A stretch of DNA of 64,000 nt from Fidelibacterota bacterium (GCA_016845065.1 JAERTG010000050.1:129948-193947); one strand, 5' to 3'. Shown: positions 13,255-63,926, numbered from the stretch's first letter. Notes: generated by a model not told the origin, from the sequence alone. A program made the numbers and translations.

Positions 13255-13307
13255 ACGTTTCCAATCTATACAGAAATACAATCCATGCAAGACAGATTTT
13301 GATCAAA

Positions 13308-15581: not shown

Positions 15582-15729
15582 GGCCAGCAATGTATTGTGA
15601 CGCCCAGTCTGATGAAAGAAAAAGGAATATTTCAGCTTTTTTGAAGAAAATATTTTATGGGTTTAAAAAATGCTATGCACGCCTTATTTGAAGGATATAT
15701 TAAGCGTAACTAAGAAGTGAGACACGCTA

Positions 15730-16563: not shown

Positions 16564-16619
16564 TCAAATGAAATTATACATAACCTTTAACAATCGGTCC
16601 CCTTTGAACAGGGACCGAA

Positions 16620-18649: not shown

Positions 18650-18672
18650 TTAATATCCATTTATGATAATTA

Positions 18673-18706
18673 GAGCCGGTCGCTTCTCCGACCGGCTCTC
18701 TTGTCT
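18673..18706 (+). terminator. Rho-independent terminator after gap
   Basis: GC-rich hairpin gagccggtcg-cttctc-cgaccggctc followed by a T-rich tail. Confidence 0.6.
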
Positions 18707-18752
18707 AAAAAAAAGCAATATTTCAAACTGTTTTAGCTGGGAAATGTAAAGA

Positions 18753-20822: not shown

Positions 20823-20835
20823 ACACGAGGAATAA

Positions 20836-22554: not shown

Positions 22555-22992
22555 CTAATGCCTTTTGCTCATTTTCTCAAACTTCTTTGCCAATTCATCC
22601 CGCTGTGAATCGTCTAGACTTGCATGGAAATCAGCATAATCTGAGACCATGGTTTTGCGAAAAGCGCTAAACTCATTTTCAATCTCATCAAATTGCATGT
22701 TTAGTGCATCCACATCCATTCGAGCTGTTCTGAGATTCTCATTCAATGAGGTACGCAACCCAGCGTGATTCGCTTGCATACCCTCCTTGAAGAATGCAGC
22801 ATTTTCCAGGACAACTTGAAGTTTTCCTTGCTGCATCTCATTCAGATCGAGTTTCTTGGTAATCCGCTTCATCATTTTGGTTTGATCCATGTTGTGTGGA
22901 CCTCGATGAACTCCACAGGCTGCTATTCCGAGGATGAGGGCAACTACGAGAATACCCATTCCTATTCTTTTATTCAGATTTACTCTTTTCAT
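22555..22992 (-). CDS. Periplasmic Spy/CpxP/ZraP-family (LTXXQ-type) stress protein
   Basis: Signal peptide MKRVNLNKRIGMGILVVALILGIAAC. A helical domain carrying LNEMQQGKL and LDDSQRDEL repeats. Start moved to the internal M so it does not overlap the upstream gene. Confidence 0.6.
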   Translation of the reverse strand: MKRVNLNKRIGMGILVVALILGIAACGVHRGPHNMDQTKMMKRITKKLDLNEMQQGKLQVVLENAAFFKEGMQANHAGLRTSLNENLRTARMDVDALNMQFDEIENEFSAFRKTMVSDYADFHASLDDSQRDELAKKFEKMSKRH

Positions 22993-22996
22993 ATCC

Positions 22997-23329
22997 TTAA
23001 TCCTTTTCTTCTTTAGCAGATTCTGCAGGTGTTTCATCTTCAGCACGAACTTCTTGATGATGCTTCAATTCAATTTTTTCCTTCAAGTGAGATTTCCAGG
23101 GACGATGACTGTGGGATTTATTATGACGATTCCCACCATGACCGCTGGAAAACAAAATCTTAGAAAGAATAATGAGCCCCAGAGCTTGCCAATATGTTAT
23201 TACTGGACCACTAAACAGCGTGGGAATTAACCAATTCCAGAGTAACATAGTAATTGCTGGGAAGAGGGTGATGGCGGCAATCACAAAAAATGCTATGCCA
23301 ATAAATTTACCTTTTGATGGTTTACACAT
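22997..23329 (-). CDS. Small 2-TM membrane protein with a His-rich segment; candidate anti-sigma factor or metal sensor
   Basis: Sits immediately downstream of the ECF sigma gene with a 23-nt gap. Two hydrophobic helices, then HGGNRHNKSHSHRPWKSH and an acidic tail. Confidence 0.5.
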   Translation of the reverse strand: MCKPSKGKFIGIAFFVIAAITLFPAITMLLWNWLIPTLFSGPVITYWQALGLIILSKILFSSGHGGNRHNKSHSHRPWKSHLKEKIELKHHQEVRAEDETPAESAKEEKD

Positions 23330-23352
23330 GATTTACTCCTTTCAAATTATAC

Positions 23353-23949
23353 CTATAGATCATTTAACTTTTTCCGCAAAGCCAGCACAGCGTATCGTTT
23401 TCTGGAGAGTAAAGTGTTTTGTGAGTCCCCAGTGAGATTGGCAATTTCCTTAAAGCTCAAGCCCTCAATTTCATGCCATATAAATACTTCCCGCTGCAGT
23501 TCGGGTAGGTCTTCAATAGCAGCTTCCAATTGCTCCTGGAGTTGAGATTGTTCGAAGAGTGAATCGGTATGCAGCTCTGGATCGTGAAGTAGGTTTTCAA
23601 GAAACTGACCCTCTTCAACATCATCAGATTGAACGGCATGGTGACTTCCCTCAATGGTTCGGGCACGCTTGCGATAAAAATCGTTCACCTTGTTTCTGGC
23701 AGTTTGATATAGCCAGGCAGAGGCTGCTTCCAACGAGCGTAAATCATCAAAGGCCCCTGTGAACTGATGAAAGACATCCTGGACAATATCCTCAGCATCT
23801 TCATACTGGGGCACCATTCCGGAAACCGACCCAAGCAACCATTCCTGTGCATCAAGAATGATCGAGCTCATCCGTAGTGTTTTCTGGGATGGGGGAGTTA
23901 CGGCTTTCTGTGATTCTTTGCTTTGCATGTCACCTATATAGACGTTCAA
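23353..23949 (-). CDS. ECF-type RNA polymerase sigma factor (sigma-70 family, regions 2 and 4)
   Basis: Region 2 reads DAEDIVQDVFHQF...AWLYQTARNKVNDFYRKR. Region 4 reads LPELQREVFIWHEIEGLSFKEIANLTG. The true start may be an internal M. Confidence 0.85.
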   Translation of the reverse strand: MNVYIGDMQSKESQKAVTPPSQKTLRMSSIILDAQEWLLGSVSGMVPQYEDAEDIVQDVFHQFTGAFDDLRSLEAASAWLYQTARNKVNDFYRKRARTIEGSHHAVQSDDVEEGQFLENLLHDPELHTDSLFEQSQLQEQLEAAIEDLPELQREVFIWHEIEGLSFKEIANLTGDSQNTLLSRKRYAVLALRKKLNDL

Positions 23950-24082
23950 TCATGAGAAATATTGTATACTATTTTGGAAATGGTCAAAATATCGCAGGAG
24001 CCAGGAAGCGCTTCATGCAAACACACCTATAAGCACCAGAATTCAACCTGGTGTTATATAAAGCTATGTATTTATAATTACT

Positions 24083-35379: not shown

Positions 35380-36285
35380 ATGGCTCGCTCTGAACAATAT
35401 CTTCAGGATTTCCTAAACTATCTCCGTATTGAACGCAATCTGGCCAAGAATACCCAGGACGCCTATCTGGATGATCTGGCAAATTTCTGGGAGTTTTTAA
35501 GCTCACTGAAAATTAGTTCACCTGAGAACGTGGACCATAAAACTCTCACTGAGTATGCACGTGTGTTGAAAAAGCGAAAAATGGCTGAAACTAGTGTAGC
35601 TCGCCACTTCTCCTCTCTGAGAGCCTACTACAAGTTTTTAGTCATGGAGGGCCACCTCTCTGATGACCCGACACAATTTTTAGATTCCCCAAAACTTCCA
35701 GCAAGTTTACCAAAAATTCTGAATTTTGAAGATATTATACTCCTATTGGAAAGCATTGACACGAAGACGGCCTTGGGATTGAGGGACAGAGCCATGTTTG
35801 AGCTCATGTATGCTGCAGGTATGAGAGTTTCTGAAGTATGTAATTTGACCATGGAACAGATCCTAATAGATGATGACCTCATTCTCATTCGTGGAAAGGG
35901 GAATAAGGAAAGAATTGTTCCCCTTGGCGAAGAAGCCAAAAACTGGCTAATTGAATACATAGAACATGGTCGACCATCTCTTGAAAAAGGGTACTTTAAT
36001 GAAGGTATTCTCTTCCTGAACAATAAGGGTAAACAACTGCAGCGGAAAGGAATCTGGTTTATCCTTAAGAAACTGGCTGAAAAGGCAGATCTACATAAAC
36101 CAGTAAGTCCACACACTTTCCGACATTCTTTTGCCACACATTTGCTGGAAGGGGGAGCGGATCTCCGAATTGTACAGGAAATGCTAGGCCATGTAGATAT
36201 TTCTACAACCCAGATTTATACTCATCTTGATAGCACTTATCTCAAAGAAGTCCACAGCAGTTTCCACCCTCGAGCACGTCGCTAA
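35380..36285 (+). CDS. xerD: Tyrosine site-specific recombinase XerD/XerC
   Basis: N-terminal SAM-like domain and the catalytic box HTFRHSFATHLLEGGADLRIVQEMLGHVDISTTQIYTHL. Confidence 0.85.
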   Translation: MARSEQYLQDFLNYLRIERNLAKNTQDAYLDDLANFWEFLSSLKISSPENVDHKTLTEYARVLKKRKMAETSVARHFSSLRAYYKFLVMEGHLSDDPTQFLDSPKLPASLPKILNFEDIILLLESIDTKTALGLRDRAMFELMYAAGMRVSEVCNLTMEQILIDDDLILIRGKGNKERIVPLGEEAKNWLIEYIEHGRPSLEKGYFNEGILFLNNKGKQLQRKGIWFILKKLAEKADLHKPVSPHTFRHSFATHLLEGGADLRIVQEMLGHVDISTTQIYTHLDSTYLKEVHSSFHPRARR

Positions 36286-48637: not shown

Positions 48638-49666
48638 ATGACCTTTGATGAGTTATATCTGAAGATGAAGAATTTAATGAAAACATTGTTAAGTGGGATG
48701 TCGCTCCTGATAATCCTGGGAAGCTGTAGCGATATGGGTGAACCAGAGATTCTGTTACCACAGATGGAAGTAGAAACAACCCTAATTGATTTCTCTACTG
48801 TAACCATTGGATCTCCCCAAACGAGACAGATTCTGATTGTTAATACTGGTGAAGGTGAGCTTAAGGGTGACTTGAGTCTGGTTCAGGACAGTTCTGTATA
48901 TGCACTTCAGCCCAACGGCGCATTTACTCTATCCAATGATGACACTCTGGTAGCTGAATTATCTTTTACTCCTTCTGCTGAATTTACATATACTGCTCAA
49001 ATTATAATCAGCAGTGACGACCTGGGAAATCCTGAACATGTAGTTGATCTTAACGGCGTGGGCACAGCCTTACCCGTACCAGCACTGACCGTTTCAAGCA
49101 CCAGCTTGAATTTTGGAACCATACTGACTGATAGTAGTAGCCAACAGCAAATCACTCTTAGTAGTACAGGAAATGATACCTTGTTGATTTCATCAATTGC
49201 TTTTGACCTGTCTGCTTATCGTGTTGATGTGGGCACACCACTCGAACTGATTCCTGGTGCTTCGCAAACTCTGACTATCACCTTTCATTCTGATGAAGCA
49301 GGAACCTTTAATGGGAACCTTTCTATTGTATCAAATAGCCCATCCACACCGGATGTTGTCTCACTCTCAGGCGTGACGGAAGCAGCTGTGAGTTATGCAG
49401 CAGCGATCCAGCCAGTTTGGGACGCCAGTTGTGGTGGGTGCCATGGTTCAAATGGTGGATTAAATTTAACATCGTATAATAATCTCATGTTGGGAACCTC
49501 TTCCAACGGACCTGCTGTGATTCCTTTTGATGGTGCAAATAGTTTGATCATCAGACGAATTGATGGGACAACTGGTGGACTTATGCCACAGGGCGGTCCT
49601 TCTCTCTCAGCAAGTACCATTGCTACAATTGAAACGTGGATCAACCAGGGAGCGCTAAACAATTGA
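48638..49666 (+). CDS. Lipoprotein with Ig-like (HYDIN/ASH-type) repeats and a C-terminal PSCyt1-type mono-heme cytochrome c domain
   Basis: Likely start MKTLLSGMSLLIILGSCSD at 48677. Heme-binding CGGCHG, followed by the pattern ...GGLNL...GPAVIPFDGANSLI...GGLMPQGGPSLS...IETWINQGA typical of the Planctomycete cytochrome C domain. Confidence 0.6.
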   Translation: MTFDELYLKMKNLMKTLLSGMSLLIILGSCSDMGEPEILLPQMEVETTLIDFSTVTIGSPQTRQILIVNTGEGELKGDLSLVQDSSVYALQPNGAFTLSNDDTLVAELSFTPSAEFTYTAQIIISSDDLGNPEHVVDLNGVGTALPVPALTVSSTSLNFGTILTDSSSQQQITLSSTGNDTLLISSIAFDLSAYRVDVGTPLELIPGASQTLTITFHSDEAGTFNGNLSIVSNSPSTPDVVSLSGVTEAAVSYAAAIQPVWDASCGGCHGSNGGLNLTSYNNLMLGTSSNGPAVIPFDGANSLIIRRIDGTTGGLMPQGGPSLSASTIATIETWINQGALNN

Positions 49667-50754
49667 AATTACTTATTCGAATTACTCTCATTAGTCTAAC
49701 TACTGCTAGTCTTTTCGCACTTCCCAGGTTTGCCATGATGGAGGAAGTCAGTTGTGGAACCTGTCATTCCTACCAGGGTGGTGGTGGCAACAGGACTGCG
49801 TATGGAGAAGAATATGCCCGAGAAAGTCTAATCATGCGAGATTTCTCACTGCCCTGGGAGAATGAGGACAATGATTTCCCCGTTTATTTTGGTGCAGATA
49901 CAAGATATCAAATGATTGCTCAGGCAGATGAAGACCTGAGGCAGTTTCCCATGCAGTTTTCACTCTATGGTGGGGTTGAACTGGGTAGTCTCATCGCGCA
50001 TGCTGAAGTTTCCAGGATATCTGAGGAAATTAGAGTAGCGGGTGGTCTCAGGTATGAGGAGTTGCCACTTGAGAGTTGGGTTGGTCTGGCCAAGGCAATG
50101 CCGGTCTTGGGATGGAGGATAGATGATCATAGCATTTTTACCCGCGGTGGCAACCTGACACTCCAGGGCCTTTCCCGTGAGGGCATGCCGTATACTCCAT
50201 TTATGGAATCACCTGAAATGGTTCAGTTTGGAACTTCCTTCATCTATGGATTTGATCTAACGTTCATGGCAGGTACTCCATTTATTGATCCGACCAGGAC
50301 ACTCGATGCCAAGCTCTTTAAGGCTGCGAAAATGAATTACCAACTATCTGGAGATCTTTTTTCAGCCCAGATAGGTCTGGCATATTTTGACGAGAATGAT
50401 CTGATAAGCGGATCCGTTGCCAGCTGGGGTTTGTCTAGTCATGGATTTGTCTGGTTGGGTGAGTGGTCTCAAATGAATGGATGGATACAACCTGAAATCA
50501 CCAACTTAGCCACGATGCATCAATTGAGTTACCGCTTATTTCAGGGTTTGGATCTGGTTGGGCGCTATGAATTTTTTGATCCTGACGTTGATCTTACCAC
50601 TGGTGCCATCCAGCGAACCAGTCTGGGTGTAGAGTTTTTTCCTCTTCGAAGTGTAGAGATGAAATTGAGTTATCGGACCAGCACGCTAGATTTACCTGAT
50701 AGCAGTCCTGATTCCGAATCACAGATATTGAGTCAGATTCACTTCTATCTCTAG
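49636..50754 (+). CDS. Putative outer-membrane beta-barrel protein with an N-terminal CXXCH heme motif
   Basis: Probable TTG start at 49663 (in frame), giving the signal peptide KLLIRITLISLTTASLFA. CGTCHS lies just after the signal. Amphipathic beta-strands run to the C-terminus (...LSQIHFYL). Confidence 0.5.
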   Translation: MDQPGSAKQLKLLIRITLISLTTASLFALPRFAMMEEVSCGTCHSYQGGGGNRTAYGEEYARESLIMRDFSLPWENEDNDFPVYFGADTRYQMIAQADEDLRQFPMQFSLYGGVELGSLIAHAEVSRISEEIRVAGGLRYEELPLESWVGLAKAMPVLGWRIDDHSIFTRGGNLTLQGLSREGMPYTPFMESPEMVQFGTSFIYGFDLTFMAGTPFIDPTRTLDAKLFKAAKMNYQLSGDLFSAQIGLAYFDENDLISGSVASWGLSSHGFVWLGEWSQMNGWIQPEITNLATMHQLSYRLFQGLDLVGRYEFFDPDVDLTTGAIQRTSLGVEFFPLRSVEMKLSYRTSTLDLPDSSPDSESQILSQIHFYL

Positions 50755-51957: not shown

Positions 51958-53793
51958 ATGCATAAAATTGTAAAGATCCTCTTAACCGTCATGGTCTCAT
52001 TCCTTTTGCTCATTCAGTGTACTCCTACCTCTGATCCGGTGAAGGCTGATATCATGTACTTTTTGCTGATTGATCGTTTTGTAGATGGCGACCCCAAGAA
52101 TAATTGGGGAACTAATCCTCGAAGCTACCAACCTTATGATGGAAGTAATCCAGAAGCTTTGAAGGCTTATCAAGGTGGGGATCTCCTTGGTGTAACAAAT
52201 TCTTTGGATAGCCTTAAGACTTTGGGGATCAGTATGATCTGGATATCCCCATTTATAGACAATTCAAATACAGACTATGTAGGTTGGTGGCCCTATCATG
52301 GCTATCATCCGATTGATTTCTATAAAGTGGATGAACACTTTGGGACTCTGGAGGATTTGAAAAATTTAGTAGATGAAGCTCATTTAAGAGACATGAAAAT
52401 CATATTTGATATGCCTTTTAACCAAACAGCAGCTGATCACCCATGGATTGATGATGAGAGCAAAAAGAACTGGTTCCATGCAGATGAGCAGGGTAAACCA
52501 TTTGCCATAACAGATTGGCAAAACCAGGATCAAATAGAGCGTGGTGAGTTACATGGCCTACCCGATCTTGCCCAGGAAAATGTGGATGTGAGCAATTATT
52601 TATTTGAGGTGTCGAAATACTGGATCGAAGAGACTGGATGTGATGGTTTCCGTTTGGATGCTGTCAAACATGCACCTATAAGTTTCTGGAAAAACTACAC
52701 AAAACAGATTCGAGAGCTGGCAGGTAAGGACTTTTTACTTTTTGGTGAGGTTTTCTGGGGTGAAGCCTGGAGAATTGAACCCTATGATAATATTGGTTTT
52801 GACTATCTCTTCGATATTCCAGGTTATTACGCCATCCGCAATACTTTCAATAAAGGAGCTGGTCTGGGAGACTTCTCAAGATTTTATGAGATAAATTCTG
52901 CAAAACTACCAAATACTAGTTTTGCTACACTCATAGATAATCATGATGTTGCCCGATTTAATGTAGATCTAGAAGATAAGGCCTGGGAAAAGCAACTACT
53001 GGCATTGGGTTGGCTAATGACAGCGCCAGGATTGCCGGTTATTTACTCCGGAACTGAGATAGGGATGAAGGGCTACTCCGTGGACGAGGTGAGTAGTGAA
53101 TCTCAAGACTATTTAAATCGTTTGCCGTACCCACAATCATTTTCAAATGAACAGATACTTCGTAGAAAAGAGTTTATTAAACTTACAAACCTTCGTAGCA
53201 ATCATGGTGCGCTGAGTCATGGTGAATTTAGGGAACTGTACAAGGATTGGTCAATATATGCCTATATAAGAACCCAGGGGGAGGAGAACATTTTGACCTG
53301 CTTGAATAATGCAAGCACCCAGGAATTTATCTCGATTCCCATTCCTCAAGGTATGGCTGTCTCTCAGACGCATAAAATATATGGAGAAGGAGTCATTCGT
53401 CATGAGGAGGCTGAGTTACTGCTCCGACTCCCACCAAATGCTATGTCAGTTTGGGCATTTGAGGGCGAAATAAGTAGCGATTTGCCTACATGGGTTGGAT
53501 TTACAGATAGACTTTCGTCTGATTATCAGGTGAAAGAATTGTACTATATAGATAGGGATGAAAGTGTTAATCAGCTCCAGGTTGCTGGAGATTTCAGCAA
53601 CTGGACAGCAGGTGATTATTCAACTAGCAGGATAGGTGATAGCCTGTTGATTGAGGTTCCCTTAAAACCGGGAAGGTATCATTATAAATTAATCCTTAAC
53701 GGAGATACATGGATTGCTGATCCACATGCCGCAGAATCCACAACGGATCCCTATGGTGGAACCAATAGCATAATGGTGGTTTCTTCACCCTGA
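51958..53793 (+). CDS. GH13-family alpha-amylase lipoprotein with C-terminal CBM48/E-set-like glycogen-binding domain
   Basis: Lipobox LLIQCTP. GH13 regions DRFVDGD, GFRLDAVKH, FGEVFWGE, and IDNHDVARF. The C-terminal ~90 aa form a beta-sandwich reading ...VAGDFSNWT...GRYHYKLILNGDTWIADP. Confidence 0.85.
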   Translation: MHKIVKILLTVMVSFLLLIQCTPTSDPVKADIMYFLLIDRFVDGDPKNNWGTNPRSYQPYDGSNPEALKAYQGGDLLGVTNSLDSLKTLGISMIWISPFIDNSNTDYVGWWPYHGYHPIDFYKVDEHFGTLEDLKNLVDEAHLRDMKIIFDMPFNQTAADHPWIDDESKKNWFHADEQGKPFAITDWQNQDQIERGELHGLPDLAQENVDVSNYLFEVSKYWIEETGCDGFRLDAVKHAPISFWKNYTKQIRELAGKDFLLFGEVFWGEAWRIEPYDNIGFDYLFDIPGYYAIRNTFNKGAGLGDFSRFYEINSAKLPNTSFATLIDNHDVARFNVDLEDKAWEKQLLALGWLMTAPGLPVIYSGTEIGMKGYSVDEVSSESQDYLNRLPYPQSFSNEQILRRKEFIKLTNLRSNHGALSHGEFRELYKDWSIYAYIRTQGEENILTCLNNASTQEFISIPIPQGMAVSQTHKIYGEGVIRHEEAELLLRLPPNAMSVWAFEGEISSDLPTWVGFTDRLSSDYQVKELYYIDRDESVNQLQVAGDFSNWTAGDYSTSRIGDSLLIEVPLKPGRYHYKLILNGDTWIADPHAAESTTDPYGGTNSIMVVSSP

Positions 53794-54039
53794 TTTTACA
53801 AACCCCTCAAATGTTGACTGATGAATTATTAATTGATCAATCAATTCTCTTCGGACCCAATTTTGTTGTGCGTATAAAGTGTTGTCCAAACACTGCCTTA
53901 CTCTCCTTGGGTTTTCTCAAAATTGTTGATAAGGTGTATGGAAATATTGTTGACAAGGGTAGGGGGGAACCATAAATTGAAGAAACGTAACTCAGGAAAG
54001 GGTTACTAAAATTAAAAGCATGGGGTTAAGTTGTTTCTG

Positions 54040-56943
54040 ATGACTAGATTTTTTCGCATTTTACTCCGTCTAATTACAGTAGCGTATCTTGTGAGTTCCT
54101 TTTCGATTGCTGGTACAACTGGTAAAATCTCTGGTACAGTAAGAGATGCAGAAAGTCTCGAAGGCCTCATTGGATGTAATGTTATCGTTGACAAAACACG
54201 GTTTGGAGCCTCTGTGGACCTTGATGGGAGTTTTTATATTATTGGCCTCGAACCTGGAGAGTATTCACTCACTGCTACCATGATTGGATATCAACAAGTT
54301 CGCCTATCTGAAGTACAGGTGCGTGCTGATCTAACAACCAATGTGGAGTTTGAACTACCATCAACTATTCTGATGTCAAGCGAAGTGGTTGAAGTTGTCG
54401 CGAAACGTGAAACTATCGTAAAGGATTTAACTGCCACCTCGGCTATCGTGTCATCTGAACAGATCGCCTCAATGCCAGTGACTGATATGGGGGATATCAT
54501 TAACCTCCAAGCTGGAATGGTTGATGGTCACATGCGGGGGGGACGCTCAGGTGAGGTTGCATATTGGATCGATGGCATCCCTGTTACTGATGTTTATGAT
54601 GGTGGTCAAATGTTTGAAGTATCCAAGGACTTAATCCAGGAGCTTCAGGTTATCTCAGGTGCTTTTAACGCTGAATATGGTCAGGCAATGTCAGGTATTG
54701 TCAATGTAACGACTAAAACCGGATACAAGGACTGGGGGGGTAATCTATCAGTCTACACAGGAGACTATCTGAGCCGTCATAATGAACTCTATATGGGTAT
54801 TGATGAGTTCAATCCCATTACCATCAAGAATCTCGACCTCTCCCTTCATGGCCCCATTATAAAAGACAAATTAGATATTAGCATTTCTCTCAGGGATGTT
54901 TATTGGCAAGGATGGCTCAATGGCCGGCACCAATTTAATCCTTGGGCTGTTCCGGTTATTGGATTCGATGGTTTAACCTCTCTGGGAGTCGATGCCCAAC
55001 TGGATTCACTCGTGACGAGTGTTTTTACAGAAATACCTGATCAGGGACCCATGAGTGATGATGAATACGCTGCTCTGAAAGACAGTCTCTTTGCGGATGG
55101 ATATGCAAAAGTTCATGGAAATCATTTGGATTCCATGGGTGATGGTGAATACAAACCCATGCAATGGAATCATCGTCAATTTTATCATGGACGTGTAAAC
55201 TGGTATCTATCCCCAGGATTAAGGTTGTCCTTTCAAGGCTCCTATACTGATGTTACCTATCAGGATTATGAGCGATCCTATCGATTAAATCCTTATGGCG
55301 ATTTGACCCGACAGACTCAAAGCTATAATTACCTTGCAAAATTGATGCACAGTTTGAACACGAACAGCTATTATTCTATTGGTCTTTCGAGGGCTACTAA
55401 AACATACTTCCATTATAACGCTGATGATTATGTTGTGTATGATGAAATGGGAGCCCCCATGCATTCGTACGCTTTTCCAACTTCCGGTACAAACAATGGG
55501 CGATTTAATAGAGTGAGTCTCACAGACCTCATCAAGATCGATTATGTGAATCAACTGACTTCTCATCACCAAATGAAAGCTGGAATTGAATACCGTCAAC
55601 ACTTGCTAACGCTTCAGGACAGTACCTTGCAGCCTCCTTCTGATAAAACCACTCTCAATCCAGTCTTTGATGATCCTCGCATTGCCGATCCTCGTATCCT
55701 TGATATTTCCACCATTTATAACAGTCAGTACGAACACCAACCCATTGAATTCTCAGCATACATTCAGGATAAAATCGAACTCAAGGAACTCATCATTAAT
55801 ATCGGTGTGCGTATGGATTACTTCAAACCAGATGGTCATGTCTTAGCTGATCCATCTGATCCTAGCATTTACGAACCACTTCGATTGAATAACATCTACC
55901 ATGATACTGATAGCGATGGTGTTTATGGTAATGAAAGTGATGCGCTTAAAACTGTGGCTGAGCGAAGTGAATATTGGTATGTGGCAGCCGAAGATAAAGT
56001 GCAGATTAGTCCAAGATTCGGAGCAAGTTTCCCAGTGACTGATAAGGGTGTGATTCATGTTTCCTATGGCCATTTCCTGCAGATTCCTCGGTTTGAACAT
56101 CTCTATCGCAACCCTGATTTTGATCTGGACAGTGGAACTGGGAACATTGGTGTCATAGGAAATGCAGACTTAAAGCCTGAAAAAACAATTTCAGGAGAAA
56201 TCGGAGTTACACAGGAAATTATGGACGGTGTGAGTCTTGATTTGACTGGCTACTTTAGAGATATCCGTAATTTGATTGGGACGAACTCTGAACAGATTGA
56301 AATTTTTGGTGGATCAGCCTTTTACAGCAAAATTGAAAACAGTGATTTTGCATATGTGAAGGGCATGGTGCTGGCATTGAACTATTACAATTCGAACGGA
56401 ATATCTGGCAACATTGATTACACCTTCCAGGTAGCTGAAGGAACTGCGTCTGATGCGGAAGAGGCCAGAAATTCCGTAACAGGTGGAGCTGAGCCAGGCA
56501 TCTATATTCGAGCTCTTAATTGGGATCAAAGGCACACTGTGAATCTGTCAGTAAACTATAATGCAGCATTTTGGGGTGTAAGTACCATCGGAGCCATGGG
56601 CAGCGGTCTACCCTATACACCGAATCTAGCTGCTGAAAATACACTTCTGACAAATAGCGCAACCAAGCCAATCACTCTTAATCTCGATTTGAACATTTAC
56701 TACAAATTCAAAGTGTTCAACAAAGAAAGTCAAGTATTCTTGAGAGTTCAAAATGTCCTGGATCATTTGAATCAATCGGGTGTCTATGATAAGACAGGAG
56801 TGGCAGATTTTACTCCAGATGAGCAACAAGTTAGAAACCTCAATGTAGATGAGTCCGTGAATACTGTTGAAGAGTGGTTCCGCAACGAAACTTTCTACTC
56901 TGAACCGCGACGCATTGAATTGGGATTGGGGCTTAATTTCTGA
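54040..56943 (+). CDS. TonB-dependent outer-membrane receptor (SusC-like, CarbopepD_reg N-domain)
   Basis: Signal peptide. The N-domain GKISGTVRDAESLEGLIGCNVIVDKTRFGASVDLDGSFYI. Plug and barrel. Ends ...LGLGLNF. Its stop overlaps the next gene's ATG (TGATG). Confidence 0.85.
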   Translation: MTRFFRILLRLITVAYLVSSFSIAGTTGKISGTVRDAESLEGLIGCNVIVDKTRFGASVDLDGSFYIIGLEPGEYSLTATMIGYQQVRLSEVQVRADLTTNVEFELPSTILMSSEVVEVVAKRETIVKDLTATSAIVSSEQIASMPVTDMGDIINLQAGMVDGHMRGGRSGEVAYWIDGIPVTDVYDGGQMFEVSKDLIQELQVISGAFNAEYGQAMSGIVNVTTKTGYKDWGGNLSVYTGDYLSRHNELYMGIDEFNPITIKNLDLSLHGPIIKDKLDISISLRDVYWQGWLNGRHQFNPWAVPVIGFDGLTSLGVDAQLDSLVTSVFTEIPDQGPMSDDEYAALKDSLFADGYAKVHGNHLDSMGDGEYKPMQWNHRQFYHGRVNWYLSPGLRLSFQGSYTDVTYQDYERSYRLNPYGDLTRQTQSYNYLAKLMHSLNTNSYYSIGLSRATKTYFHYNADDYVVYDEMGAPMHSYAFPTSGTNNGRFNRVSLTDLIKIDYVNQLTSHHQMKAGIEYRQHLLTLQDSTLQPPSDKTTLNPVFDDPRIADPRILDISTIYNSQYEHQPIEFSAYIQDKIELKELIINIGVRMDYFKPDGHVLADPSDPSIYEPLRLNNIYHDTDSDGVYGNESDALKTVAERSEYWYVAAEDKVQISPRFGASFPVTDKGVIHVSYGHFLQIPRFEHLYRNPDFDLDSGTGNIGVIGNADLKPEKTISGEIGVTQEIMDGVSLDLTGYFRDIRNLIGTNSEQIEIFGGSAFYSKIENSDFAYVKGMVLALNYYNSNGISGNIDYTFQVAEGTASDAEEARNSVTGGAEPGIYIRALNWDQRHTVNLSVNYNAAFWGVSTIGAMGSGLPYTPNLAAENTLLTNSATKPITLNLDLNIYYKFKVFNKESQVFLRVQNVLDHLNQSGVYDKTGVADFTPDEQQVRNLNVDESVNTVEEWFRNETFYSEPRRIELGLGLNF

Positions 56944-59900
56944 TGAATACCAAGCTGAATATTTACACGATCAAAATAATTTTCATTATACTTTTTATTA
57001 CCCCGGGACTAATTGCCGAAAGTGGAAGAGCCCACCGAAAGAACGCAGTCCATAAGGGAAACCTTGTTAAGACTGTCTTTGGAAACTGGGGCGTAGTTGG
57101 ACAACCATCTGGAAAGGGACCTCGAGGTGCCTGGATACACGATAATAATGGATATGTAGGGGATGTAAGTCCGTTGGTTGGAGCGCAAATCACGACTCAT
57201 GATACTTCTGGAAATGAGAGAACATTTCATACCGTCGTAGTATCTCCTGTCAGTCGACCTTCGAACGGTGGACATGAGATAAGCCCTTCTGGTAAACAGT
57301 GGGGTTTTGAACCTGTGTCTGGTTACGCCAATCCTGATCAATCTTCCATCGCCATGAGTACAAATCCTCAGAGCTGGCCTTCAATCTGGCCAGATGAGCC
57401 TACTTGGGCAGGAACCTGGAATGGGTATTTTGGGCAAATTTCCAACGCCTCTGAGGAAAGTTATTATGTCATGGATGATGCCAATGACGAAGAATTTAAC
57501 TTTGCAGAAAATAATAATTACCGTGTGGCTTTTAAACCCGATAGTACAGATACAGAACGCAATGGTCTAGGATTGGAAGTCAAAGTAAGAGGCATGCAGT
57601 GGGGGCAATTTCTTGCCCAGGATGTAATTTTCTGGCTATATGAAGTAACCAATACAAGCACCACTGATTATGATCAGATCGTTTTTGGAATGCTTGTGGG
57701 AACCTATGTTGGTGTTACCGGTACGGATGATACTCCCAATGAATATGATGATGATTGGTCATTCTTTGATGTGGAGCGGGATTTGACGTTTACTGGTGAT
57801 TTTGACAATAATGTTTCCCGCAACTCGAATTGGGTTGGCAACGAAGTAGGCATGGTGGGATATGCTTTCTTGGAAAGTCCAGGAAATCCTTTTGATGGCA
57901 TCGATAATGATCGAGATGCAGCTGAATATGGTGACGCTGATTTCTTTGAAGAGGAAGATTTTCAAAACCGCGTGTTAAATCTTGGTGATGAGCTCATTCT
58001 CATTGATGATCAATTTAATCGCTCCTCACATTTTCTCTCCGCCGGGCCAGACACGTTAACTAGTAGGGGTTTGGTTCTGGTGGTCTCACCTGGTGATACC
58101 TTGCTTCCAGAGGGTAATGAAGTTTTAGCGCCCCATGCTGTCAATAGCAGTGATTTAGTTGTGAATGGCAATGCTGTTGATGGTCTTGATAATGATTTTG
58201 ACGGTTTGATTGACGAGAATTATTATCTCCACTACCGTCAGGTAAGGAAGGACCAGGAGGGCAATATTCTCTTTGATATTCTCAATCCTACAGCCTTTGT
58301 GAACTACGTGACAGGCATGGGATCTTTGAATCCCATGATTGATGAAAAACGTGATGATCTTGAAGACAATGATGGAGATTGGATCGCGGAATTTGATGAT
58401 GTTGGTTCTGATGGAGTTCCTGGAACGGATGATTTAGATGGAACTGAGGGAAATGGTTGGCCTGATGTAGGAGAACCCAATTTTGATCACACAGACCCCG
58501 ATGAATCAGACCAGATCGGTCTATCAGCATTTAATTACTTCGCACCTGCCGGTGATATCGAGATGCATAACGACGAAGGTCTCTGGGATATGATGGAACC
58601 GGGCTATTTTGATGTACCTGCATCTATACAGAACGGAAGACCCGTAGCTGGTGAAGATGGTGATTTTGTCTATAGCTCTGGATATTTCCCCCTCCAGGCT
58701 GGACAAACTGAAAGATTCTCCATCGGGCTGCTCTACGGTGAAGATCAGGCGGATTTACTGAAAAATTTGGCCACAGTTAAAAATATTTACGATAGTGATT
58801 ATCGCTTCCCAACAGCCCCACTGAAACCTACCGTATCTGCAGTAGCAGGAGATGGTTCCGTCACATTGTACTGGGATAGAAGAGCGGAAGAATCCATTGA
58901 TCCTGTATTGAAAATCAAGGATTTTGAGGGATATAAAATTTATCGAGCAACAGATCCTAACTTTAATGATATTCGAAATATCACCAACAGCCTAGGTGTA
59001 GTGGAAGGCTATGAATTTCTGGATCAGTTTGACCTGATCAATGAGTACTCCGGTCCTTTCTACCCAAGTGAAGATTTATTTACTCAGAGTGATGGTTATA
59101 CATTTTATCTGGGAGACAATTCAGGTCTGCAACATAGTTTTACAGATAACGACGTCCTCAACGGCAGAACATATTATTATGCAGTTGTTGCTTATGATCG
59201 TGGAGATGGAGATTCGGATATATTTCCATCAGAGAACACGAAATTTGTAGCGATTTCACCATCAGGTGAGGTGACTTTAGACCAGAATACTGTAATGATT
59301 GTGCCAGGTCCTACTCCACCAGGATACACTTCATCAATGGGCATAATTCCAATCGATCACGTTTCACCTGTGGGGACTGGTAATGTTCAGGTGAATGTGA
59401 TAGATCCTGATGCCCTCAAAGATCATGTCTATATCCTCAGCTTTAAAGATATGGCCACAGATGGCGTGGATAATGACGGGGATTGGAACGCTGCTACTGA
59501 CGATGTGGGAACGGATGGTGTTGCTGGAACAAATGATGTAGATGGCAGTGAGGGGGATGGTCTGCCTCAAGACGGTGAGCCCAATTTCGAATTTAGTGAC
59601 GCTGAGGAGCTCAACAGACTCACTACTTCTTATTCAGTTTTAGATTCCACCGGTTTTAATGTGGCATTTGAACCTCTGGATACCCTGTATGTTCAACTTG
59701 GTGTAAAAAATATTGTGGAATCTAGTGTACAATTGGTAGATGAGAGCGGAAACACCGTGCCCTCTGCAGAATTTGATCTGAGAAGCGAAAGCGGGGCAAT
59801 ACGAGCTTCATCAACAGGAAGTCTTCCATATGATAGTTATACATTATCTGGTCAATACTATCCAGTTTTTGAAAGCCCTTACGTATACGACTCACCATTT

Positions 59901-60815
59901 GTGAGTGAGGCATTTGACAGTGATATTTTTGATGGTCTAGAACTCTATTTCGAGAATGATTGGGATGTTGAGCTCATTGATTCTCTTACAGGTTGGAACA
60001 CCCTTGATAAATATGATTTCATTTTTGGAACCACGATTATCAATCTTGGTGGGGGTGTGTCTTTATATCCCATCAGATATCCGTCAAACTATCAAATAAC
60101 TTTCACAACTGATCCTGAATATATCGCCAATGATTCTACCTTTATGGTTGATTTCTTTGGAGGTGCACAAAATGAGAATCTGGCTGTCAATTTCCAGCTT
60201 GAAAACGTAACAGGAGGGTATAGCCCACAAATCCTGTTTGATGATCAGGATAGCAATGGGAAACTCACCAGCGGTGATGTCATATTGATTTTTGATCAAG
60301 ATATTAATGGCAATTATTTTTACACCTGGAACATTGTTTTTAGAGATTCGCCTACATACCCCGACTTGGATACAGTTTTTACGTTTACGGAAGCTGATAC
60401 AATATTTGTAAATACTACCCAACCTTTCCGTGATGGGGATGTGTTCGTATTTAGTCCTGAGATTCCCCGGATTGAAACTACCACAATAAAGGAATCTCTC
60501 GATGACATCAAGGTCTTCCCCAATCCCTACATAGCAGCTAATATTTTTGAGCACCCCCTATCTCCAGGCATTACAAGTGGAAGAGGGGAGAGACGAGTCA
60601 CCTTTACCCATATCCCTTATGATGCTTCAATTCACATTTATACTGCCCGTGGGGATCACGTGAAAACCCTGGTGAACGATAGTTCCATCGAAAACTCCAT
60701 GGTGAATTGGAATCTCAAAACAAAAGAGAATCTGGAGATTGCCTACGGTATCTATTTTTATGTCGTGGATACAGAATTTGGACGTAAAACTGGCAAACTG
60801 GCGATTGTGAAGTAG
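56943..60815 (+). CDS. Large secreted surface protein (1290 aa) with internal Ca-binding-like repeats and a T9SS C-terminal sorting domain
   Basis: Signal peptide. Two ~40-aa repeats reading DNDGDW...DDVG[ST]DGV.GT.D.DG[ST]EG.G.P..GEPNF. The C-terminal ~80 aa follow the T9SS CTD pattern (KVFPNPY...IYFYVVDTEFGRKTGKLAIVK). Confidence 0.7.
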   Translation: MNTKLNIYTIKIIFIILFITPGLIAESGRAHRKNAVHKGNLVKTVFGNWGVVGQPSGKGPRGAWIHDNNGYVGDVSPLVGAQITTHDTSGNERTFHTVVVSPVSRPSNGGHEISPSGKQWGFEPVSGYANPDQSSIAMSTNPQSWPSIWPDEPTWAGTWNGYFGQISNASEESYYVMDDANDEEFNFAENNNYRVAFKPDSTDTERNGLGLEVKVRGMQWGQFLAQDVIFWLYEVTNTSTTDYDQIVFGMLVGTYVGVTGTDDTPNEYDDDWSFFDVERDLTFTGDFDNNVSRNSNWVGNEVGMVGYAFLESPGNPFDGIDNDRDAAEYGDADFFEEEDFQNRVLNLGDELILIDDQFNRSSHFLSAGPDTLTSRGLVLVVSPGDTLLPEGNEVLAPHAVNSSDLVVNGNAVDGLDNDFDGLIDENYYLHYRQVRKDQEGNILFDILNPTAFVNYVTGMGSLNPMIDEKRDDLEDNDGDWIAEFDDVGSDGVPGTDDLDGTEGNGWPDVGEPNFDHTDPDESDQIGLSAFNYFAPAGDIEMHNDEGLWDMMEPGYFDVPASIQNGRPVAGEDGDFVYSSGYFPLQAGQTERFSIGLLYGEDQADLLKNLATVKNIYDSDYRFPTAPLKPTVSAVAGDGSVTLYWDRRAEESIDPVLKIKDFEGYKIYRATDPNFNDIRNITNSLGVVEGYEFLDQFDLINEYSGPFYPSEDLFTQSDGYTFYLGDNSGLQHSFTDNDVLNGRTYYYAVVAYDRGDGDSDIFPSENTKFVAISPSGEVTLDQNTVMIVPGPTPPGYTSSMGIIPIDHVSPVGTGNVQVNVIDPDALKDHVYILSFKDMATDGVDNDGDWNAATDDVGTDGVAGTNDVDGSEGDGLPQDGEPNFEFSDAEELNRLTTSYSVLDSTGFNVAFEPLDTLYVQLGVKNIVESSVQLVDESGNTVPSAEFDLRSESGAIRASSTGSLPYDSYTLSGQYYPVFESPYVYDSPFVSEAFDSDIFDGLELYFENDWDVELIDSLTGWNTLDKYDFIFGTTIINLGGGVSLYPIRYPSNYQITFTTDPEYIANDSTFMVDFFGGAQNENLAVNFQLENVTGGYSPQILFDDQDSNGKLTSGDVILIFDQDINGNYFYTWNIVFRDSPTYPDLDTVFTFTEADTIFVNTTQPFRDGDVFVFSPEIPRIETTTIKESLDDIKVFPNPYIAANIFEHPLSPGITSGRGERRVTFTHIPYDASIHIYTARGDHVKTLVNDSSIENSMVNWNLKTKENLEIAYGIYFYVVDTEFGRKTGKLAIVK

Positions 60816-60828
60816 GGTGGTGAAGCAG

Positions 60829-61827
60829 ATGAAATCAAAAATTATCGTACTTTTTGTACTACCTCTACTCATTTTTGGACAGGCAAAAGTTGGAACAAGC
60901 GCTGCACCTTTTCTGGGCATCGATGTTGGTGCTGTAGGTATCGCTATGGGGGGTAGTCAGGTTGCTCGAGCCCAGGACGCTTCAACCATCTATTGGAATC
61001 CAGGTGCTGCAGCTCAACTCCAGGGCAATCATCTACAATTCACCAGCAGCAATTGGTTTGTCGGTTCAAAATTTCAATATGCTGCTGGTATAATCAAAAT
61101 CTCTTCATCAGATGCCATTGGTCTGAGCTTTACTGTACTGGACTATGGTGAGGAGGAAATCACCGATGTATACAACCAGGAGGGTACGGGTCAATACTGG
61201 CAAGCAAGTGATTTATCCATTAGCTTGAATTACTCACGTATGCTCACTGATCGATTCTCAATCGGTGGAACAGGTAAATATATCCAACAGAAAATATGGC
61301 ATGAAACTGCATCATCCATGGCATTGGATGTGGGTATCCTCTTCCGTACCCAGTTGTCCGGTCTCCAGATTGGTATGAGTATATCTAATTTTGGTGCGAA
61401 TATGATCCTGGATGGAGCAGATCTGTTAACCCGAATCGACATTGACCCAGAGAATACGGGGAATAATGAAACACTGGTTGCTAAATTAAAGGTAGATGAC
61501 TGGCCCTTGCCTTTATTTTTTCGTCTTGGAGTAGCGTACGAGTATTCATTGGGTTCTACTACATCCATCACCTTTCTAACTGATGCTCTGGTTCCTTCTG
61601 ACAATGTGGAAGTTATAAATACTGGAGTTGAGGTTGGTGTACTTGATAAATTTTTTATCAGAACTGGTCTGAAAAATATCGGAAATGATGACAGTCTGAT
61701 TAATTACTCAGCTGGGGCTGGTTTGAAGCTTCCCGTCAATAGAAATATGGTGAGCTTTGATTACAGTATGCAGGAGTATGAATATTTTGGGTTAATCCAT
61801 ACTTATGGTGTGGAATTTACATTTTAA
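60829..61827 (+). CDS. PorV/PorQ-family T9SS-associated outer-membrane beta-barrel protein
   Basis: ATG at 60829. Signal peptide. N-terminal signature GTSAAPFLGIDVGAVGIAMGGSQVA. The barrel ends ...YGVEFTF. Confidence 0.6.
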   Translation: MKSKIIVLFVLPLLIFGQAKVGTSAAPFLGIDVGAVGIAMGGSQVARAQDASTIYWNPGAAAQLQGNHLQFTSSNWFVGSKFQYAAGIIKISSSDAIGLSFTVLDYGEEEITDVYNQEGTGQYWQASDLSISLNYSRMLTDRFSIGGTGKYIQQKIWHETASSMALDVGILFRTQLSGLQIGMSISNFGANMILDGADLLTRIDIDPENTGNNETLVAKLKVDDWPLPLFFRLGVAYEYSLGSTTSITFLTDALVPSDNVEVINTGVEVGVLDKFFIRTGLKNIGNDDSLINYSAGAGLKLPVNRNMVSFDYSMQEYEYFGLIHTYGVEFTF

Positions 61828-61856
61828 CAAGCAATAACAAACCAGAGGAGGTTTAA

Positions 61857-63869
61857 ATGCGCTTTATAGCTACACTAACCCTTTCACTGATGATGATAGT
61901 TTCTCTTTCAGCTGATGTGAATGTAACCTTCCGTGCAAATACAGCATTTGTACCGGATACCCTTAACGCAATGAGCTCCGTTCAAATGCGCGGTGCTCTA
62001 CCAACCCTGACATGGGACAACACATCCCCTGTTATCTTCACCAACGTGGGTGGAGATTACTGGGAAGCTACCATGACTGTTCCAGATGCAACGGTTGGAG
62101 AATACAAATTCTTTACTAATTCGCTTCCAGGTCCCATTGACGCTGCTTGGGGTGGCTGGGAAGGTGATCCAAACAGGACCTTAGATCTTTCAGGTTTCTC
62201 AGGATCTGATACCACACTGCCCTTGCAGTATGTGAATGGTTATGAAAATGGTGCCTCACAATTCGATCCACCTTATGAAACCAATGACTCAACCATTGTT
62301 GTACACATTCGTGTAAATATGCAGGGTTGGGAAGATTTCAATGATGAAACCATGTGGGTAGGTGCCCGCGGAGGATTCGGTGACCTGGATTGGGGCTCAA
62401 CCATGTGGCTCACCCAGGAATCACCTCATGTAAATGGTGGTAGCCAACAGTACAATGCGGATAACTTCTATTCTGCTAATGTCCGCGTTCCGCTGGCTGA
62501 TGCAACGGGTAGCAATGGTTTCAAGTTTGTGGTCCACGCTGCCGGTTCTGAACCAACACAGGACTGGGGTGATATGCTTTACAACCCTAATGGAGACATC
62601 CCTGCTAGCTATTCTGGTGCGGATACCACCCTCTATTGGAGCTGGTTCGCTGGTCTTGAACCTGCTGGTTTTACAGGTACAGATACTACCCCTCTGACCT
62701 TCAAGGCTGATTTTTCAACAACAATTGCTGAAAATGGATACGCAATCGGTGACTCTGTCATCGTGCGTTATGGCTATTTTGGGTCTGCTGGTGAAGTAAG
62801 CGAAGCTGGACTTACAAAAGAAGGTTTATTTGGCAATGAATATTCCGTTAGAATTCCTGAAGTAACTGTGAATTTTGGTGAGAAACTATATTACCAGTAT
62901 TATAAACTGGATGAAAGCCTAGCTGAATATCGGGAGATCTACTTCAATTTTGACTACGCAGGTGATACACCTTCAGAGGCGGAGCGTCGTGAAGTCATTG
63001 TCACTGCAGCTGATACCACGATCATGGATGTGGTCGTTAGTACCGTAGATTCACGCCGTCAGCCACTCTTCCGCAACACCAACGCTGTTGGTCAGCATGT
63101 AACCGTGTCTTACACCGTCGATATGCGTCCAGCTTACTGGCACGTTGACGCGGGTGTAACTTTAGAAGATATACAGGGAAATCTTGATATCTCTAGAGCC
63201 GGACAAATTGACAGCCTGGGCGTGTTTATGAATGGTCCAGCCACTGGTGGTTGGTCTGGTTGGGGTTTGGATCTTGCTTCACTTGAAGAAAAACAACTCT
63301 TTGATGACGGAACTCATGGTGATGTCACAGCCGATGATGATGTCTATACCCTTCAGTTTGAATACGCACCAGATAGCTCCAACAATGTTATCGGACAGGA
63401 ATTCAAGTTCGGTATTGGTGGTGGCGACAATGAAAGCAATTACGGTCTGAATCACGTTGAGAATATCAATGATGCCAATGATACGTATACAATTGCTTCT
63501 GCTTGGGGTAGTATTAACCCGAATTTTTATTCACTATGGGACTTTGACAACATGATTGGTCTGGTCGGTGTGGATGAATTTGTTGCTCCTAATGCCCTTA
63601 GTCTGTCACAGAACTACCCCAACCCATTCAACCCAACAACAAACATCAGCTATATCTTGCCACAAGCTGGCCATGTTGAATTGGTAATTTATAATGCTCT
63701 TGGTCAGGAAGTACGGACCTTGAAAGCTGGATACAGCAATGCTGGAAGCTATTCTGTTAATTGGAATGGTCTTGATCATGCTGGTAACAGCGTTGCCAGT
63801 GGTCTGTATATTTATACTTTGACCACCGGTGATCAAAGCATTAGCAAGAAAATGCTCATGCTGAAATAA
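61857..63869 (+). CDS. Secreted multi-module carbohydrate-binding protein (CBM20/25-like starch-binding modules) with T9SS C-terminal sorting domain
   Basis: Signal peptide. Repeated beta-sandwich modules with W...GxW...EYKF-type motifs. Canonical T9SS type-A CTD LSQNYPNPFNPTT...YSVNWNG...ASGLYIYTL. Confidence 0.7.
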   Translation: MRFIATLTLSLMMIVSLSADVNVTFRANTAFVPDTLNAMSSVQMRGALPTLTWDNTSPVIFTNVGGDYWEATMTVPDATVGEYKFFTNSLPGPIDAAWGGWEGDPNRTLDLSGFSGSDTTLPLQYVNGYENGASQFDPPYETNDSTIVVHIRVNMQGWEDFNDETMWVGARGGFGDLDWGSTMWLTQESPHVNGGSQQYNADNFYSANVRVPLADATGSNGFKFVVHAAGSEPTQDWGDMLYNPNGDIPASYSGADTTLYWSWFAGLEPAGFTGTDTTPLTFKADFSTTIAENGYAIGDSVIVRYGYFGSAGEVSEAGLTKEGLFGNEYSVRIPEVTVNFGEKLYYQYYKLDESLAEYREIYFNFDYAGDTPSEAERREVIVTAADTTIMDVVVSTVDSRRQPLFRNTNAVGQHVTVSYTVDMRPAYWHVDAGVTLEDIQGNLDISRAGQIDSLGVFMNGPATGGWSGWGLDLASLEEKQLFDDGTHGDVTADDDVYTLQFEYAPDSSNNVIGQEFKFGIGGGDNESNYGLNHVENINDANDTYTIASAWGSINPNFYSLWDFDNMIGLVGVDEFVAPNALSLSQNYPNPFNPTTNISYILPQAGHVELVIYNALGQEVRTLKAGYSNAGSYSVNWNGLDHAGNSVASGLYIYTLTTGDQSISKKMLMLK

Positions 63870-63900
63870 TCGCAATGCGATTGCTTTAATCTTATTACAG

Positions 63901-63926
63901 GGTGGAGAATTTCTTCTCCACCCTGT
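63901..63926 (+). terminator. Rho-independent terminator
   Basis: Hairpin gggtggagaa-tttc-ttctccaccc followed by tgtttta. Confidence 0.65.

Follow-up and report, generated by a model that had tools for sequence, protein, structure and literature searches.

A putative SusD-less, type IX secretion-linked alpha-glucan locus in a Fidelibacterota bacterium and the conserved receptor-giant-barrel triad at its centre

How a bacterium could bring starch-like polymers across its outer membrane without a SusC/SusD pair is the question raised by a gene cluster at positions 51,958 to 63,869 of a 64,000-nucleotide stretch (the window) from Fidelibacterota bacterium (GCA_016845065.1 JAERTG010000050.1:129948-193947). 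A sequence-only reading of the window, made by a model, had proposed that the cluster is an alpha-glucan utilisation locus coupled to the secretion system of type IX (T9SS), and without SusD. The five co-directional genes that it described are all present as plus-strand open reading frames (ORFs), at 51958-53793, 54031-56943, 56943-60815, 60817-61827 and 61857-63869. They encode a 611-aa hydrolase of glycoside hydrolase (GH) family 13, a TonB-dependent receptor (TBDR), a giant protein of 1290 aa, a PorV-like barrel, and a 670-aa T9SS cargo protein with modules that resemble carbohydrate-binding module (CBM) family 20. The TBDR stop codon and the ATG of the giant overlap as described, with the single base 56943 in common, and the PorV-like gene follows the giant after 1 nt, or 13 nt if counted to its first ATG at 60829. 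No scanned ORF of the window matches the SusD_RagB or SusD-like Pfam families, so the claim that SusD is missing holds here, and the Pfam annotation precomputed for related loci (L001, L003-L008 and L091) is likewise free of SusD families.

The genes for the TBDR, the giant and the PorV-like barrel form a triad that is tightly linked, often translationally coupled, and conserved across phyla. A scan with the family alignment as query and one genome per species returned 80 loci, which span Neomarinimicrobiota, Calditrichota, Ignavibacteria (including a metagenome-assembled genome (MAG) of Melioribacter roseus), KSB1 and Rhodothermales, and come also from Balneolaceae, Stahlbacteria, Krumholzibacteriia and unclassified Bacteroidota MAGs. 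Linkage was counted in the 80 sampled loci by local ORF calling and phmmer, with genes within 150 nt taken as linked. Upstream, a TBDR is linked to the giant in 62 of 69 testable loci (median gap 13 nt); downstream, a PorV-like gene is linked to it in 57 of 66 (median gap 14 nt); and both neighbours are linked to it in 48 of 58. According to the gene maps, several of the non-linked loci are artefacts of ORF calling.

The neighbours of the triad in related genomes point to alpha-glucan. The recurring order is (LacI)-(GH13)-TBDR-giant-PorV-like-CBM20/CTD protein(s), where CTD is a C-terminal domain of the T9SS type, followed by a GH13-CTD protein or GDE, an SSF or ABC transporter, and sometimes GH77. 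This order is found in L001 (Gemmatimonadota), L003 (KSB1), L004, L005, and in L006 and L091 (Marinimicrobia, 83% and at least 90% identity). Orthologous alpha-glucan loci occur in five independent lineages (Marinimicrobia, KSB1, Gemmatimonadota, Calditrichota and Ignavibacteria), and since the synteny is conserved across phyla the arrangement is not due to chance. On this comparative sequence evidence the assignment of the locus to alpha-glucan is well supported, and the cross-phylum synteny with LacI, GH13-CTD, CBM20-CTD, GH77/GDE and SSF/ABC genes also supports the proposal of a SusD-less, T9SS-coupled locus. Judged by its gene content, the locus is a polysaccharide utilisation locus (PUL) by function and not a Sus-like PUL by membership (no SusD and no SusC-family TBDR). 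The co-localised, co-directional carbohydrate-active enzymes (CAZymes), binders, regulator and transporter of a Sus-like PUL are found when the GH13 and CBM20 proteins of the window are taken together with the orthologous loci.

The identity of about 50% across phyla had also raised the idea that the triad is a housekeeping module of the envelope, unrelated to sugars. This idea was rejected, as all orthologous loci carry alpha-glucan genes and the paralogous loci have other catabolic enzymes.

The best model, which we regard as fairly probable, has the T9SS export the giant, the cognate PorV-like barrel tether it, and the tethered giant act together with the TBDR as an analogue of SusD, SusE and SusF. 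As a part of this model, the locus would quite probably supply the outer-membrane half of the machinery with which a Marinimicrobia bacterium uses alpha-glucan (starch, glycogen, maltodextrin). The T9SS would export the CBM20 protein and a GH13-CTD amylase, the latter encoded just past the window in close relatives, and together they would bind and cut the polymer at the surface. These two proteins have canonical type-A CTDs and would follow the general pathway. The giant would be exported through its divergent CTD, which would remain uncleaved on the dedicated PorV/PorQ-like barrel and so hold the giant beside the TBDR. Its conserved core would dock on the TBDR and its variable segments would capture oligosaccharides, the task of SusD and SusE/F in Bacteroides. 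The TBDR would import maltooligosaccharides, the GH13 without a CTD would trim them, and an ABC or SSF transporter would carry the sugars over the inner membrane to GH57 and phosphorylase enzymes. The T9SS-type surface proteins may thus replace SusD, SusE and SusF functionally, as the sequence-only reading had supposed.

The tether rests on the CTD of the giant and on the barrel. The CTD comprises residues 1185-1290 (60495..60812, plus strand). The last 106 residues align by hhalign to the type-A CTD profile built from the family of the 670-aa protein with 96.2% probability (E 2.2e-9), and relative to type-A CTDs they carry a 16-aa insertion, E..PL.PGITSGRGER. R1214, G1215 and R1217 in the insertion are each at least 90% conserved across all locus types, and the divergent CTD aligns in essentially all of 76 giants examined. 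By profile comparison it is a divergent CTD related to the type-A CTDs of the T9SS. The barrel gene (60817..61827, plus strand) encodes a FadL-like outer-membrane beta-barrel of 332-336 aa with a signal peptide. It had been read as a member of the PorV/PorQ family, and NF033709, the model for that family, confirms this with 181.3 bits against a cut-off of 90. The protein falls under the equivalog cut-offs for PorV (NF033710, 69.3 vs 250) and PorQ (NF033711, 93.3 vs 220), is far under that for PorV2, and matches F. johnsoniae PorV weakly. By these scores it is not an equivalog of PorV or of PorQ. There are precedents for a CTD retained on its cognate barrel, namely PorU on PorV and PorZ on PorQ (PMC10202324), and the same review notes the suggestion that cognate PorV-like barrels protect CTDs from cleavage. 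A FadL-like barrel also holds a surface protein in the BAM complex of Bacteroidota (BamG-BamH, PMC12578637).

The same barrel could instead be a shuttle dedicated to the locus, which carries all CTD cargo of the locus, the CBM20 protein, the GH13-CTD and the giant, from the translocon to the attachment complex, with the giant processed normally and then attached to lipopolysaccharide or released. PorV is such a shuttle in Bacteroidota (PMC12578637, PMC10202324), and additional type-A CTD proteins are common in triad loci. However, the barrel is linked specifically to the giant gene, with the median gap of 14 nt, while the other CTD genes vary in number and position. The RG.R insertion is also found only in the giant, the other proteins having canonical type-A CTDs, which suggests a private partner. 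A shuttle of this kind appears unlikely.

Several observations weigh against the model of a tethered giant that serves the TBDR, and a first group concerns the giant itself (56943..60815, plus strand). That the giant is sorted by the T9SS, as the sequence-only reading had it, agrees with the type-A homology of its CTD, but its C-terminus stays below the curated thresholds (CHU_C 0.019, Por_Secre_tail 0.36, and TIGRFAM likewise failed). No core T9SS genes (sprA/sov, porK/L/M/N, porU) lie in the 64-kb window; SAR406 genomes encode abundant CTD proteins, according to a SAR406 study. No carbohydrate-binding module is recognisable in the giant by Pfam, Foldseek or PDB profile searches. An AlphaFold2 (AF2) model of residues 26-1195 is of moderate confidence (pLDDT 74, pTM 0.65), and the single Foldseek match to the PDB at E <= 0.001 is a weak one of the FN3 type.

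Beyond its Sec signal peptide (residues 1-25), the giant belongs to an uncurated family. It has no Pfam or NCBIfam match, and against the PDB it gives two chance-level matches by sequence and nothing significant by profile. Its homologues number more than 2,000. Marinimicrobia, KSB1, Gemmatimonadota and other MAGs supply many with a full-length identity of about 50%, and all source names shown give them as hypothetical. At E <= 1e-3, an exhaustive HMMER scan of 1.84 billion representatives places 1,489 clusters in the family, and at the stricter E <= 1e-30 it places 395. Most family clusters have only residues ~10-840 in common. The conserved beta-rich core covers ~30-330 and 450-840, and segments 331-450 and 841-1170 are indel-rich, poorly conserved, and different between locus types. 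From the sequence pattern, an FN3-like module may lie at ~626-765. The acidic motif DNDGDW..DDVG.DG..GT.D.DG.EG.G.P..GEPNF occurs twice, at ~470-530, where it is nearly invariant family-wide, and at ~843-900, in a segment occupied in 23-41% of 76 aligned giants. This repeat probably binds calcium. The invariant residues are mostly D, G, W, P and Y in loops of the D-x-D-x-D type, and they look structural or calcium-binding.

These features leave room for a different role, in which the TBDR alone imports the glycan and the giant and barrel are merely co-regulated as an adhesin or S-layer-like structure, for example for attachment to particles. The lack of a detectable CBM would suit such a role, the FN3 module and the acidic, calcium-binding-like repeats are common in adhesins, and Marinimicrobia encode many CTD proteins. 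The start/stop overlap with the TBDR gene, and the adjacency of the two genes in 62 of 69 loci across phyla, speak against it. So does the phylogeny of the giant, which tracks the enzyme content of the locus and would be unexpected for a generic adhesin. The chance that the giant is an adhesin seems small.

The phylogeny is best read together with the locus contents, which were typed by neighbour clustering and Pfam scans. The triad occurs with GH13 and CBM20-CTD, as in the window; with GH66-CTD, a six-hairpin GH and a sigma-54 regulator; with GH144-CTD, GH94, GH3, CBM9-CTD, an ABC transporter and LacI, a classic beta-1,2-glucan set; and with GH10 or GH127 and CBM9. Other loci pair it with FG-GAP-CTD and Amidase_2-CTD or with M23-CTD, with Laminin_G_3-CTD, with arylsulfotransferase-CTD and penicillin amidase, or with DUF3160-CTD. 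Around one distant paralogue of the giant (36% identity) the locus consists of CBM9-CTD, TBDR, giant, PorV-like, GH10-CTD, GH10 and SSF genes. In a neighbour-joining tree the giants group by locus type and not by phylum. The beta-1,2-glucan clade brings together Rhodothermales, Krumholzibacteriia, Ignavibacteria and Calditrichia, and the top alpha-glucan clade Marinimicrobia, Gemmatimonadota, KSB1 and Calditrichia.

This spread of substrates also bears on the idea that the giant is an unrecognised enzyme acting on the substrate. The protein is large and highly conserved, has many invariant acidic residues, and is without a known fold match, as such an enzyme might be. Yet one conserved core accompanies loci for alpha-1,4, alpha-1,6, beta-1,2 and beta-1,4 glycans as well as peptidoglycan hydrolases, and because the same core is found with such different substrates, a single shared chemistry is unlikely. 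The structural or calcium-binding look of the invariant residues argues in the same direction. A hidden enzyme is accordingly a very improbable explanation.

The second group of observations that tell against a tethered SusD/E/F analogue concerns the TBDR (54031..56943, plus strand; 967-970 aa, with the likely start at ATG 54040). It has CarboxypepD_reg and Plug domains and a barrel of the 22-strand type (PF00593/PF25183). It had been called SusC-like, which is true for the domain layout only. Eleven NCBIfam families match it at E <= 0.01, none of them SusC/RagA (TIGR04056-type), and its closest relatives in the PDB by sequence are YncD, PqqU and Cir, with SusC not among them. Judged by these family models, the TBDR is not a member of the SusC/RagA family. 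Its CarboxypepD_reg and PF25183 layout is that of Oar-type receptors, and one of these, Oar of Myxococcus, has been implicated in export, being needed for secretion of PopC. In addition, some triad loci have no recognisable CAZyme, and a SurA-like peptidyl-prolyl isomerase (PPIase) is encoded in 18 triad loci. For these two reasons the cassette is not strictly glycan-specific.

The triad might then be a device for export or assembly, with the giant secreted or inserted by an Oar-like TBDR and the FadL-like barrel in a process separate from glycan import. The non-SusC layout of the receptor, the role of Myxococcus Oar, and the SurA-like PPIase adjacent in 18 loci would all be in keeping with this. 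The genomic context argues instead for glycan import, unlike the export implied for Oar. A neighbour survey covered 86 non-redundant loci, with the neighbour families typed by one representative per cluster, and in it each family of inner-membrane sugar transporter genes occurs in 8-12 loci, while 18 loci have a LacI-type regulator. In many loci, hydrolases that act outside the cell are found together with glycosidases of the periplasm or cytoplasm and with sugar transporters of the inner membrane, and because of this combination an import step at the outer membrane is needed. The TBDR is the sole candidate for that step identified in the 86 loci. The T9SS-type CTD of the giant further points to the T9SS as its export route. 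An export device of this kind is improbable.

The preferred model, import by the TBDR with the giant tethered beside it, may extend beyond alpha-glucan. Somewhat tentatively, and as something we would put at a little short of even, the triad is a phylum-spanning alternative to SusC/SusD. It would serve T9SS-dependent nutrient capture, with a PorV-family barrel that permanently tethers a giant of novel fold on a non-SusC TBDR, and with paralogous cassettes for starch, dextran, beta-1,2-glucan, xylan and peptidoglycan. The lineages that carry such specialised cassettes would include Marinimicrobia, Ignavibacteria, Calditrichota, KSB1, Gemmatimonadota and Rhodothermales. PULDB and most metagenome pipelines predict PULs from the susC/susD tandem, and for PULs outside Bacteroidetes PULDB relies on susCD tandems only. 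If the triad is functionally equivalent, glycan uptake has been overlooked in abundant ocean, sediment and subsurface lineages (SAR406/Marinimicrobia, Ignavibacteria, Calditrichota, KSB1). In that case a large uncurated family, with about 1,500 clusters at 50% identity, would gain a function. PorV-family barrels and T9SS CTDs would serve not just for secretion and attachment but also in the building of transporter complexes, and the three genes would provide a simple marker for substrate-specific uptake loci outside Bacteroidia.

A description of the TBDR-giant-PorV-like cassette was not found in the full-text literature searched, in which most subscription journals are missing. Such loci go unmentioned in the Caldithrix genome paper. 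The genome paper for Melioribacter roseus labels Mros0759-0761 in a starch operon, possibly a triad, as 'SusE, SusD, SusC'. The SAR406 study records an abundance of Por-CTD proteins, TBDRs and GH13 and no such architecture.

The Sus system of Bacteroides thetaiotaomicron (SusC/D/E/F/G) and Sus-like PULs are the closest functional comparison. There, too, the genes run in one direction and encode an outer-membrane TBDR whose N-terminal domain is of the CarboxypepD_reg type, glycan binders and an amylase at the surface, a GH13 in the periplasm, a regulator and a transporter of the inner membrane, and the gene directly after the TBDR likewise encodes an accessory protein that diversifies with the substrate. 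In contrast to Sus, the present locus has no SusD (a TPR lipoprotein) and its TBDR is not SusC/RagA; the surface proteins are T9SS CTD proteins where those of Sus are surface lipoproteins; and there are two extra obligatory partners, the giant of ~1100-1300 aa and the PorV/PorQ-family barrel. In the chitin utilisation locus of Flavobacterium johnsoniae, glycan-active proteins exported by the T9SS, such as ChiA, also cooperate with a TBDR-based uptake locus. That locus relies on SusC/SusD pairs and the general PorV, however, and has neither a giant nor a dedicated barrel.

From the side of the T9SS, the giant and its barrel resemble PorU-PorV, PorZ-PorQ and the pairs of type-B CTD proteins with PorP/SprF-like barrels (SprB/SprF), in which a CTD surface protein is paired with a barrel encoded by an adjacent gene. 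The retained CTD as a tether is an idea from the review of these systems (PMC10202324). Unlike them, the pair described here sits in nutrient-uptake loci and is joined to a TBDR gene, its barrel is no PorV or PorQ equivalog, its CTD is derived from type A with a unique insertion, and nothing implies that it acts in cargo processing or gliding. TBDRs capped by a surface protein, such as BtuB-BtuG, and the BamG-BamH pair (PMC12578637) are similar in that outer-membrane barrels hold large extracellular partners, with a FadL-like 14-strand barrel as one of the holders. Their partners are lipoproteins without a T9SS signal, and both cargo and function differ.

The 670-aa protein (61857..63869, plus strand) is a T9SS cargo of type A. 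The TIGR04183 check proposed in the sequence-only reading was run, and the CTD (587-670) scores 45.5 bits against a cut-off of 23, with PF18962 reaching 30.4 against 27, and the sequence shows a signal peptide. An AF2 model (pLDDT 83) has four beta-sandwich modules in addition to the CTD. M1 (19-128) and M2 (140-268) have the CBM20 fold and are homologous to each other (98.3%), and M3 (272-398) is possibly related to them; M4 spans 408-565. The modules had been described as CBM20/25-like, and the CBM20 part of this description has support from the homologues and the structural model. Pfam CBM_20 is sub-threshold in the window copy (13.6 bits vs 23.3), and PF00686 matches 20 of 33 full-length homologues, the best at 2.3e-13. 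Foldseek aligns the model with the CBM20 structure of STBD1 (probability 1.0, TM 0.76), with further matches to an E. rectale CBM26, a pullulanase and a CGTase, and the family profile weakly matches CBM20 PDB chains and the CBM20-like part of RNF213. None of the searches supports CBM25. From the sequence and the structural model, this is a putative surface starch-binding protein.

The GH13 protein (51958..53793, plus strand) is an alpha-glucan hydrolase of 611 aa that matches Pfam Alpha-amylase PF00128 with an E-value of 5.9e-56 (191 bits). Its translation has the catalytic-region motifs GFRLDAVKH, GEVFW and NHDVARF. The catalytic domain covers ~36-384, an amylase C-domain 422-493, and a CBM48-type tail ~536-609. 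This tail had been noted before, and the C-terminal 107 aa scanned alone match PF16561 AMPK1_CBM (CBM48-type) with 29.7 bits against a cut-off of 26.8; within the whole protein the score is 25.5 bits. The best NCBIfam match is cyclomaltodextrinase, and all NCBIfam equivalogs are far under their cut-offs. The signal peptide has a possible lipobox, LLIQ-C here and LFSC in an 83%-identical relative, with the cysteine conserved, so the earlier call of a lipoprotein is plausible. GH13s in the same position in other lineages have a plain signal peptide and no CTD, which fits a role in periplasmic trimming. Since the window GH13 also lacks a T9SS CTD, it probably resides in the periplasm or on the outer membrane's inner face, where it would carry out a SusA-like step.

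The G+C content is even over the locus region at ~0.41-0.45, and thus gives no sign of a foreign island. A terminator-like hairpin at 63897..63926 (plus strand; 13-bp stem, 7 G-C pairs, T-run; a consensus match only) lies 28 nt past the stop codon of the 670-aa gene and is likely the 3' end of a TBDR-giant-PorV-CBM20 transcription unit. The intergenic region between GH13 and the TBDR (53794..54030, plus strand, 237 nt) contains a sigma-70-like match, TTGACA-17-TAAATT, at 53950-53978, and may, on this weak indication, hold an internal promoter. Promoter-like matches in the region are no more numerous than in shuffled sequence, and no promoter is claimed. The locus is cut by the end of the window, and its downstream genes are predicted from the relatives at 83% and at least 90% identity. 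In these (L006, L091), the locus goes on downstream with genes for an esterase (PF00756), an ABC importer (a fusion of a substrate-binding protein and a permease, and a permease), a 585-aa GH13 and a 1024-aa GH13-CTD protein, and on its upstream side it has the same genes as in the window.

Some triad loci depart from the usual layout. The order is TBDR, PorV-like, giant in L038, L039 (the Melioribacter roseus MAG) and L055, and giants in tandem or two triads per contig occur in L027 (5019-11848), L048 and L059 (622-6419). The SurA-like PPIases have two rotamase domains in ~450-670 aa and are encoded near triads of several types (L020, L022, L026, L030, L032, L036-L038, L042-L046, L050, L059, L082, L086 and L088). 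They may be dedicated periplasmic chaperones for the TBDR, the giant or the barrel.

Elsewhere in the window, positions 15730-22482 (plus strand) encode a TrmB-family regulator, two GAPDH paralogues, a GH57 of 689 aa (AmyA/4-alpha-glucanotransferase type) and a short phosphorylase-like protein (548 aa). The cluster looks like an intracellular module for alpha-glucan and glycolysis, 30 kb from the uptake locus. The TrmB, GH57 and glgP genes that had been taken as signs of an alpha-glucan lifestyle are thus present, the last as a phosphorylase-like gene, and a regulatory link from TrmB is unsupported. TrmB was rejected as the regulator of the locus, being 36 kb off and beside the GAPDH, GH57 and phosphorylase genes. 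Related loci moreover have an adjacent LacI, which the window is without.

A second CarboxypepD_reg-type TBDR (818 aa) is encoded at 22555-26539 (minus strand), next to an ECF-type sigma factor (23353-23949) and a Metal_resist-domain protein. It has no giant or PorV-like partner, and so not every such TBDR in the genome belongs to a triad.

The remaining genes of note are of various kinds. At 48638-50754 (plus strand), a 372-aa ORF without a family match overlaps the gene of an Ig-repeat protein (ASH/DUF1573) that also has a Planctomycete cytochrome C domain, and this pair, with the flanking P-type ATPase and AIR-synthase-like genes, is kept in L006 and L091. At 9546-15590 (minus strand) a LolA-like protein, two MMPL/RND-like transporters (766 and 760 aa) and a TetR regulator are encoded in the same direction, and downstream of them lie two ORFs without a family match (7244-9536, minus strand). 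The genes at 851-6047 (plus strand) encode a 975-aa M1-family peptidase followed by a 749-aa M14 carboxypeptidase with InhA-like MAM and dockerin-type I domains, a combination that is unusual outside cellulosome producers. A XerC/D-type tyrosine recombinase lies among housekeeping genes at 35380-36285 (plus strand).

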